DNA of 64,000 nt from Chloroflexota bacterium (lineage in GTDB: Bacteria > Chloroflexota > Chloroflexia > QHBQ01). The notes beneath the pieces were generated by a model that saw only the letters and a program-made list of their open reading frames with translations, was not told where the DNA came from and searched no databases. Below are positions 4,260 to 51,755 of the stretch, one piece after another. The DNA lies in NCBI GenBank assembly GCA_043754535.1, contig JAYUUN010000120.1, positions 1-64,000 on the forward strand, in the 5' to 3' direction. Numbering within the stretch: the stretch's first letter is position 1; every line of letters begins with the position of its first letter. A program made the position numbers and the translations under genes.

Positions 4260-5576
4260 TTACGCCTCCTCCTTGCCGCTGTCGTTGCTGCCATTACTAC
4301 TGTTATCGGGGCTACTGAGGGAGCGAGTGCCTTCCATGATCGACACGGTGATGTAGGTACCCGTACCCGCGTGGCTGTGGATCGCAGCACGCTTGGCGTT
4401 CTTGATCGCCAGCTTGTCGTTGCCCAGGTGCTTCTTCATGCTGCCCTGCAATTGCCAGAAGGCAAAGACCGCCTGCATCAGCCCAGTTGCGCCGACGGGG
4501 TGGCCGCAAGCGAGCAGGCCGCCACTGGGGTTGACCGGCAGCTTGCCGTCCAACTCGGAATGTCCTTCTTCGATGAACTTGCCGCCGTCGCCGTACTTGC
4601 AGAGGCCCATGTCCTCGTAAGTCTGGATTTCGGAGGAGGTATAAGCATCGTGTAGTTCAACAAAATCAAGGTCTTCGATTGGGTTGGTGATGCCAGCCAT
4701 CTTGTAGGCCAGCTTGGTCGCCGCGCGCCCGCCCCGGAAGGAGTGGACACCAGGGTACTTGAGGTCTTTGTAGTCGGCCTCGTTCTCATGGTCAAGCAGG
4801 ATCACCTTGCCATGTGGGCGGTCAGACATACGCATCGTGTCGGTGCCAGAGCCAATGCCAGTGACAAGCACCGGGTCAACCGCGCCCATCTTGATCGCCA
4901 TTTCCTCGGTAGCGAAGATGACGGTCGCTGCACCGTCGGACATGGTGCAAATGTCAAGCAGGGTAAGGGGAGTAGCGACCATTGTGGCGGCGCGCACATC
5001 CTCTACCGTTAGCTTGGCAGGGTACTGCGAGTAAGGGTTGTAGAGCGCATTGCCGTGGTTCTTGATGCTGACTTTTGCCAGTTGCTCGACAGTGGTGCCA
5101 AACTCGTACATATGGCGTTGCACCATCATCGCGTAGTAGCCAGAGTAGAAGCCACCAACCGGGAAGTCAAAGTTGGTGTCACTGGCAAGAGCAATGAACT
5201 CGTTGCCCTTCCAGGTGTTAACGTGGCTCATCGTCTCGAAGCCGTAGGCCACGCAAACCTCCATGCGCCCGCTGGCAATCGACTCCCAGCCTGCCTGGAA
5301 GCAGAGGCCGCCGGTCGCGCCACCGCCCTCCACCCGCTTGCTGGGCTTCGGCACCAGGCCGAGGTAGTCCTGCACCATGATGCCCGCCATCAGTTGGCGG
5401 GTGAAGTGGTCGGAGAAGTAAGAGGCGATGCTACCATCAATCATTTCCATTGTCAGGTTCGGCACGTCACGCATGGCGTAATCGAAGGACTCCTTGACCA
5501 TTGCGCGGAAGTCCTGGCGAGGGTTGGCCTTGCGGAACTTGGTGATGCCACCTGAGACCATGTAGACGGGTCTCAT
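4260..5576 (-). CDS. SCP2/archaeal-type thiolase-domain protein lacking the nucleophilic Cys
   Basis: RVEGGGATGG in place of the CxS/CAS motif; GFETMS, SDGAA, ELHDAY and VNPSGGLLACGHPVGATG. AAGGAG RBS before ATG 5576. Confidence 0.88.
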   Translation of the reverse strand: MRPVYMVSGGITKFRKANPRQDFRAMVKESFDYAMRDVPNLTMEMIDGSIASYFSDHFTRQLMAGIMVQDYLGLVPKPSKRVEGGGATGGLCFQAGWESIASGRMEVCVAYGFETMSHVNTWKGNEFIALASDTNFDFPVGGFYSGYYAMMVQRHMYEFGTTVEQLAKVSIKNHGNALYNPYSQYPAKLTVEDVRAATMVATPLTLLDICTMSDGAATVIFATEEMAIKMGAVDPVLVTGIGSGTDTMRMSDRPHGKVILLDHENEADYKDLKYPGVHSFRGGRAATKLAYKMAGITNPIEDLDFVELHDAYTSSEIQTYEDMGLCKYGDGGKFIEEGHSELDGKLPVNPSGGLLACGHPVGATGLMQAVFAFWQLQGSMKKHLGNDKLAIKNAKRAAIHSHAGTGTYITVSIMEGTRSLSSPDNSSNGSNDSGKEEA

Positions 5577-51105: not shown

Positions 51106-51755
51106 TCAGTCGCCCGTCCTCACGTCCAGCCAGGCCAGGAGGGTAGCGGCAAACTCGCGCAGGCTGAACCAGAGTTGGCCGCGATGCTCGGTCAGGTCAG
51201 CGCGCACCCCCACCGCAGCTATGCCCAGCTTGCGGCAAGTGTAGATGGCGCGAGGCAGGTGGTAGTTCTGCGTAACCAGCGTTGCCTGCTTGATGCCGAG
51301 AGCGGCGGCGTTCTGGCAGCTATCATACGTCCTTAGCCCCAGCCCATCGGTGATCAGGGCAGTGGTTGGCACACCCTGAGCCTCGGCGAAACGCTGCATT
51401 GCTGCTGGTTCAGCACCGCCGCCAGTGAGCAGCAGCTTCTGCACCTTGTCCGCTTTGTACAAGTCAACCGCCACCCGCAGGCGGTCGCGTAGTACGTCGC
51501 TGGGTGTACCGTCGGCTCGCAACGGGGCGGTGGTCGAAGATCGAAGTGCGTCTGCTTGACGCGTAGTACGTCGCTGGGTGTACCGTCGGCTCGCAACCCT
51601 GCCCCAAAGACGATAGCGATTGGCTGCCTGGGTGCATCAGCTACGTTCTGGTAGATGTGGGGCTGGGCTGCCAGGTTGACGTAAGCGACAATGGCGACCG
51701 GCGCAAGGATCAGCAGGACGGCGATTAGCCAGAACACGCGGCGGCTCCTTCGCAC
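51106..51755 (-). pseudogene. Second SanA/YdcF paralog frameshifted by a 74-bp insertion
   Basis: Removing 74 nt restores IVFGAGLRADGTPSDVLRDRL...VTQNYHLPRA...LRE. Confidence 0.85.
51486..51597. repeat. Perfect 38-bp direct repeat flanking a 36-bp unique insert
   Basis: CGCGTAGTACGTCGCTGGGTGTACCGTCGGCTCGCAAC at 51486-51523 and 51560-51597. Confidence 0.95.

Follow-up and report, generated by a model that had tools for sequence, protein, structure and literature searches.

In Escherichia coli, non-canonical integration by Cas1-Cas2 gives rise to 'neo-CRISPR' units (Nivala, Shipman and Church, Nat Microbiol 2018; as related in 10.1101/148544, PMC6607411, PMC6698737, PMC7054753 and PMC9456107), and for integration of this kind in nature one of these accounts speaks only of 'circumstantial evidence in two other species' (10.1101/148544). 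For subtype I-D, the Cas1-Cas2 of Synechocystis placed in E. coli integrates without any leader, at a much reduced rate (Kieper, Almendros and Brouns 2019, PMC6607411). The off-target sites of Pyrococcus furiosus Cas1-Cas2 in vitro are reported to share features of the repeat (PMC6698737), Streptococcus thermophilus can acquire spacers ectopically within its arrays (PMC7999890), and casposons are integrated by the casposase, a homologue of Cas1 (PMC7786333). In the full-text literature outside subscription journals, no description was found of natural ectopic integration at multiple sites in a type I-D host. The scar analysed here, in an uncultured Chloroflexia bacterium, is most likely an unusually well documented natural case of the process known from the E. 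coli experiments. It lies in a stretch of 64,000 nt (C120:1-64000, hereafter the window) of a binned assembly of 3.87 Mb in 132 contigs, which is 88.9% complete with 0.72% contamination.

Within a minus-strand gene of the window, two identical 38-mers enclose an insert of 36 nt (Table 1), the sequence being exactly as quoted in the preliminary description, which had reported a perfect 38-bp duplication around an unrelated 36-bp insert. The duplication is exactly 38 nt, as the adjoining bases are unlike on either side. Searches with words of at least 16 nt revealed no occurrence of the 38-mer or of the insert elsewhere in the 3.87-Mb assembly, and no inverted repeats were found in the 36-nt insert. 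The net gain of 74 nt leaves a remainder of 2 on division by 3 and thus shifts the frame of the gene, as had been claimed: its N-terminal part with an out-of-frame tail now forms one ORF (51354-51755) and its C-terminal part another (51106-51522). Without the 74 nt, the gene would measure 576 nt or 191 codons, as it does in the sister species (G001). On the minus strand, the duplicated segment begins GTTGCGAG, in agreement with the start given for it earlier, and ends ...CTACGCG. The site reads ...GGGGCAGG followed directly by GTTGCGAG..., that is, a G-rich flank and then the first five bases of the canonical CRISPR repeat of this genome, and the TTTGGGGCAGG in front of copy 2 is similar to the ...GG(N) with which the canonical leaders end. 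The position of the segment's start is occupied by GCTGC in the sister species.

Table 1. Positions of the scar and its host genes (window coordinates), of the canonical CRISPR arrays and of the further repeat-insert-repeat units (contig coordinates).
Feature	Position	Strand	Remark
Split DUF218 (SanA/YdcF-like) gene	51106..51755	-	broken by the 74-nt insertion after about codon 64
Intact tandem paralog, DUF218, 199 aa	50481..51080	-	directly downstream of the split gene
Copy 1 of the 38-nt target ('neo-repeat')	51486..51523	-	source of the TTG start for the C-terminal ORF fragment
Insert, spacer length	51524..51559	-	36 nt, 61% G+C, unique in the genome
Copy 2 of the 38-nt target, 'leader-side' on the minus strand	51560..51597	-	preceded by ...TTTGGGGCAGG
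Canonical array	C62		13 repeats
Canonical array	C27		26 repeats
Canonical array	C50		24 repeats
Canonical array	C31		11 repeats
Canonical array	C112		5 repeats
Canonical array	C43		3 repeats
Canonical array	C94		3 repeats
Unit, perfect	C87:9675-9787		
Unit, perfect	C57:7588-7698		
Unit, perfect	C71:43038-43152		
Unit, perfect	C71:24902-25010		
Unit, perfect	C117:4434-4548		
Unit, perfect	C43:1095-1201		
Unit, perfect	C90:1829-1948		
Unit with one or two mismatches	C46:3560-3672		
Unit with one or two mismatches	C105:24702-24807		

The split gene, which had been called sanA, and its neighbour both encode membrane proteins and belong to DUF218 in Pfam (74-80 bits, cut-off 27.6). With the SanA model of NCBIfam (NF008092, an outer membrane permeability protein), they score 62-69 bits (62.3 and 69), far below the cut-off of 363, so that the earlier name survives in its resemblance only and 'SanA-like DUF218 protein' is the right one, SanA proper being set aside. 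The neighbouring genes are panD on the upstream side and one for a GNAT acetyltransferase on the downstream side. The statement that one of two tandem paralogs was knocked out holds, as the split gene adjoins an intact DUF218 gene. The intact paralog is 49% identical to the sister-species ortholog of the split gene, and its presence would buffer the loss, which is probably tolerable for this reason. In the sister species, it is the other DUF218 paralog (L003:357-725 on contig C137) that is internally deleted, leaving 122 aa with a jump from ...RYVAAQ to AYHLLRSL...; a different member of the tandem pair is thus lost in each species, and the copy split here is the one that is intact there.

The window was correctly described as free of cas genes, though the genome has them. 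A complete type I-D locus on contig C62 encodes Cas6, Cas5d/Csc1, Cas7d/Csc2, Cas10d/Csc3, Cas3', Cas4, Cas1d and Cas2, followed by a 13-repeat array; the cas1-cas2 pair on which the preliminary description had made its reading depend is therefore present, as cas4-cas1d-cas2 next to the full type I-D effector set. Cas4, Cas1d and Cas2 are all open frames, and Cas1d scores 412 bits against a cut-off of 385. It is the single Cas1-family gene found in the assembly, and a second integrase may lie in the unassembled part of this binned genome. The cas locus (C62) and the scar (C120) are on separate contigs, linked by binning only. An ORF of 850 aa with a Csm1_B domain (type III Cas10) at C46:1002-3554 on the minus strand shows that a type III effector is present besides type I-D, and the arrays whose repeats run from GTTGCAAC to ATTGAAAC may serve both.

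All canonical repeats, which make up at least seven arrays, are 37 nt long, begin [G/A]TTGCA and end ATTGAAAC; one strand reads GTTGCA... and the opposite strand GTTTCAAT.... The 72 canonical spacers measured in six arrays range from 33 to 42 nt with a mode of 36, which together with the 37-nt repeats gives array periods of 70-79 nt. A leader motif, CTCTCGCA, is found about 30-60 nt upstream of five of the seven canonical arrays (C62, C43, C50, C27 and C94), and the visible leaders end ...GG(N) right before the repeat, giving the junction ...GG(N) followed by GTTGCAAC. Contig C27 also carries, at about 5313-5438 and 3.5 kb from its large array, a two-repeat mini-array with a C112-type repeat (ATTGCATCCACTGCCCCG...), the second copy of which is degenerate.

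The scar comes close to these dimensions, with a duplication of 38 nt, an insert of 36 nt and a period of 74 nt set against a repeat of 37 nt and a spacer mode of 36, the insert falling inside the host spacer range of 33-42 nt. The comparison of lengths and ends suggested in the preliminary description thus speaks for its reading: repeats of 37 nt beginning [G/A]TTGCA and spacers with a mode of 36 stand beside a 38 + 36 unit whose junction (...CAGG followed by GTTGCGAG) can be laid beside the canonical one (...GG(N) followed by GTTGCAAC). A strict ruler is not matched, since the duplication is 38 rather than 37 nt and the ten events described below span 36-41 nt, which calls for coincident boundary bases or a loose ruler. 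At least one coincident boundary base is expected in about 44% of events, and the 38 + 36 unit fits 37 + 37 with one ambiguous boundary base, which would imply a true stagger of 37 nt. As a functional array, the unit falls short: its 38-mer is DUF218 coding sequence ending ...CTACGCG, without the ATTGAAAC Cas6 handle. Lacking both this 3' handle and the leader motif, the neo-unit would be expected to give no crRNA.

A genome-wide scan for two-copy direct repeats outside arrays revealed seven more perfect units and two with one or two mismatches (C46 and C105), on eight other contigs (Table 1). Over all ten events, the duplications measure 36-41 nt, the inserts 34-41 nt and the periods 70-79 nt; the ten duplicated sequences are all different, as are the ten inserts. 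Duplication and insert lengths show no compensation (r = +0.20). Repeats were classed as clean when they had no third copy, when the insert shared no 8-mer with the repeat and when the flanks were dissimilar. Among the clean perfect repeats of at least 36 nt with periods of 30-1000 nt in the whole genome, eight of nine have periods of 71-79 nt, a clustering far beyond chance, and the exception, on C83 with a period of 183, belongs to a longer repeat that has diverged. At C10:9183-9269 and C128:154314-154395, clean perfect duplications of 30 nt enclose inserts of 27 and 22 nt (periods 57 and 52), both falling below the CRISPR-sized class. A tandem repeat at C104:6494-6660, with a 48-nt unit present at least four times, combines an invariant 22-nt part with an inverted repeat (TTATTTCAGGCTGAAATA) and a 26-nt part that varies slightly; its dimensions are unlike those of CRISPR.

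Seven of the ten events are found inside short intergenic regions or at their borders; most events are either placed in this way or straddle gene starts and stops, with the signal kept intact in one copy. The unit on C117 adds 26 codons in frame, and those on C105 and in the DUF218 gene frameshift their genes. Such placement is expected for random hits filtered by selection; a preference of the events for gene boundaries was also considered, but selection against gene disruption explains the intergenic bias equally well. Two locations may be recorded for their own sake: the C43:1095 unit lies about 570 nt downstream of a canonical 3-repeat array, and the C46:3560 unit a few bases upstream of the Csm1/Cas10-like gene.

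The 20 duplication ends of the ten events, each read 5'-3' on its own strand, were compared with a null of 20,000 random genomic site sets. A GT start was found at 7 of the 20 ends (null mean 1.08, P = 5e-5) and a G start at 13 (null mean 6.1, P = 0.0015), and the summed match of the ends to the canonical repeat ends was 74, compared with 52 +/- 5 in the null (P < 5e-5). Because GTT.CA is what stands at either end of the canonical repeat when the attacked strands are read, a G/GT bias at the targets is what would be expected from the same integrase. The leader motif CTCTCGCA was found within 200 nt of none of the ten ectopic sites. A resemblance to the leader beyond the last two to four bases was dropped for this reason, and the absence of the motif agrees with the leader-independent integration known for type I-D (PMC6607411).

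Taken together, the sizes, the cas genes, the nine further units, the bias of the target ends, the two alleles described below and the want of any alternative template support the reading of the scar as a natural off-target (ectopic) spacer integration by Cas1-Cas2, to which we assign a probability of roughly 0.88. The footprint itself is what points to Cas1-Cas2 as the likely catalyst. According to this reading, the spacer-inserting enzyme would have used, by mistake, a site resembling a repeat end inside the DUF218 gene, making two staggered attacks about 37 nt apart. Subsequent gap filling would have duplicated 37-38 nt of coding sequence around a spacer of 36-37 nt, the outcome being a gain of 74 nt and a frameshifted DUF218 gene.

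The competing explanation that survives best, though we regard it as improbable, is a process unconnected with CRISPR, such as filler-DNA repair of staggered breaks, an undescribed small-insertion mechanism or a casposase-like enzyme, which would add about 72-74 nt at many sites. It draws its support from the inserts, for which neither protospacer nor PAM was found. The phage or plasmid source and the PAM that had been thought worth seeking for the 36-mer did not emerge from viral, phage, genome or metagenome searches: the exact 36-mer had no match in viral_contigs, blastn against 50,697 phage records gave none either, and its 26-nt core was absent from genome_contigs and present in metagenome_contigs only in the organism's own scar. 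The insert cores of C87, C57 and the two units on C71 also had no matches in viral_contigs. Against the 72 canonical spacers, the ten inserts shared chance words of 7-10 nt only, and nine of the ten have no copy in the genome. The tenth, at C90:1870-1907, resembles not a virus but a gene of the same genome, an HlyD-family membrane-fusion gene of a MacB-type ABC operon (C48:97729-97766), at 32 of 34 positions before an indel. With two mismatches and an indel, the C48 copy is not the donor, and no PAM can be read there; the C90 insert thus came from a diverged bacterial homologue and is not obviously viral. Against a process of this kind stands the fact that the duplication length tracks the repeat length of this very genome and the insert length its spacer range, that the GT/G signature of the canonical repeats recurs at the ends of the duplications, that duplication and insert lengths do not compensate, that nine of the ten inserts lack a copy in the genome, and that the sole Cas1-family gene found lies inside the type I-D locus. 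Casposon target duplications are about 14-15 bp, and duplications of 36-41 nt thus also argue against a casposase-like enzyme.

Off-target spacer integration presupposes that the unit exists in the organism, and here an artefact of assembly, in which a loop of the de Bruijn graph or a chimeric read created the repeat-insert-repeat structure, had to be weighed. The genome is a fragmented metagenome bin, and 38 equals k-1 at k = 39, a value in use by some assemblers; the ten duplications, however, span 36-41 nt and so fit no single k-1 value. A search of public metagenome contigs with the 26-nt insert core returned one record, locus L021, an independent contig of 49 kb with an identical repeat-insert-repeat and 4 differences from the window in 3026 positions. 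At least half of the sampled words of the stretch were found in ten public runs, none of them listed as RNA (share 0.98 in eight, 0.85 in two); eight of the ten carry a flag as potential sources of the assembly, and four (X1, X5, X9 and X10) were examined in detail, the evidence being Logan contigs and unitigs (k = 31) rather than raw reads. X1 and X5 belong to two separate studies, and the assembly could have been made from either. In both, a 96-nt unitig spans 30 nt of each copy together with the whole insert, the graph of k = 31 unitigs is as expected for the filled allele, and the 38-nt repeat unitig has about twice the depth of the flanks (42.4 against 20.8 in X1 and 131.2 against 60 in X5). 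The one depth that could be read in favour of an artefact is that of the X1 insert unitig, 11.8 against 20.8 for the flanks. It would put the filled allele at about 57%, and the 38-mer depth of 42.4 at about 100%; the empty allele has no private word in X1 because k = 31 is below 38. The independent contig and the junction-spanning unitigs, found in runs from both studies, show that the structure did not arise by misassembly, the first of the dangers that the preliminary description had named, and we consider an artefact extremely unlikely.

The empty site is found both within the population and in the sister species. In X9 and X10, a single contig omits exactly 51486-51559, with no other difference over 186 + 241 nt. 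The sister species is the sole other genome of the same genus among the 40 relatives searched, with about 95% nucleotide identity at the locus, which is exactly 74 nt shorter, holds a single copy of the 38-mer without the insert and encodes an intact 191-aa ORF; a further relative (G007) gave only a weak match of 35 nt. Both alleles, for which a look at the reads had been recommended, are thus accounted for, by contigs that skip exactly 74 nt and by an empty site in an intact gene. Apart from the insertion, the filled and empty alleles found in nature share an identical background; the insertion is real and derived, and the identity of the flanks indicates that it is also recent. For four of the nine other events (C57, C71:24902, C105 and C71:43038), the sister species likewise has empty sites. 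The gap is exactly 73 nt at the first, 72 nt at the second and 70 nt at the third; at C71:43038 it is 94 nt, the target region there being 17 nt shorter in the sister species. The other five gave no such site in this genome: the regions of C87, C117 and C46 have either rearrangements or an identity of just 67-80%, no match was obtained for C43, and C90 matched in flanking repeated DNA only.

The footprint of an excised transposon or IS, which would also leave direct repeats around foreign DNA, and the decayed remnant of a true mini-CRISPR array are both far-fetched, the former because IS target duplications are usually 2-14 bp, far shorter than 36-41 nt, and because the insert has neither inverted repeats nor a match of at least 16 nt elsewhere in the genome, which disposes of the IS remnant and of the local template switch raised earlier, and the latter because the ATTGAAAC 3' end found on every canonical repeat is missing from the duplicated sequence, which, being single-copy coding sequence of the intact gene in the sister species, was never a CRISPR repeat.

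If off-target integration by the type I-D enzyme is accepted for the scar, a wider reading suggests itself, which we hold only tentatively and regard as somewhat doubtful. In this Chloroflexia lineage, the I-D integrase may be habitually promiscuous, integrating wherever a distance of about 37 nt separates two ends that begin with G(T), with no leader required, acting as a recurrent natural mutagen and seeding proto-arrays. Were this so, genes would be knocked out or remodelled, alleles would be left segregating in wild populations, single-unit proto-arrays would be seeded continually as a possible origin of new CRISPR loci, and the ten scars would amount to a natural in vivo specificity map of the I-D integrase.

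Off-target spacer integration has been well shown only in E. coli over-producing Cas1-Cas2, and a clean natural case bears on how frequent it is in nature, what it costs and whether it can found arrays. Together, the nine further scars would reveal the rules followed by the integrase in vivo, namely a ruler of about 37 nt, G or GT at both attacked ends and no need of a leader, and the fidelity and fitness cost of a type I-D adaptation module become directly testable. Annotators are warned that an integrase, and not a sequencing error, can be behind short repeat-insert-repeat units that shift the frame in a CRISPR-bearing genome.

The experiments of Nivala, Shipman and Church reportedly concerned the type I-E system of E. 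coli with over-produced Cas1-Cas2, a 28-nt repeat and an IHF-dependent choice of site. The neo-CRISPR units of that work reportedly share with the scar an insert of spacer length, a duplication of repeat length, a chromosomal site resembling a leader-repeat junction or repeat ends, and the want of function in immunity. The present case differs from them in its subtype (I-D), its 37-nt repeat, its host, an uncultured Chloroflexia bacterium, and the absence of a leader motif nearby, as well as in its ten or so events, fixed or segregating, and in an empty-site allele seen in nature. The Synechocystis study shares the subtype, and the leader-free integration that it describes is the very property needed for ectopic events, but its target was a true repeat borne on a plasmid, and no integration into non-repeat chromosomal sites is reported there (PMC6607411). 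The P. furiosus sites were obtained in vitro on plasmids with a 30-nt repeat, in contrast to the natural chromosomal footprints found here (PMC6698737). In S. thermophilus, a spacer is likewise inserted away from the leader-proximal repeat, although the events reportedly use a genuine internal repeat of the array, whereas the target here is ordinary coding DNA (PMC7999890). The casposase resembles the present system as a Cas1-family integrase that makes staggered attacks and duplicates its target, yet casposons are kilobase elements with terminal inverted repeats, and the scar consists of a 36-nt insert within a duplication of repeat length (PMC7786333).
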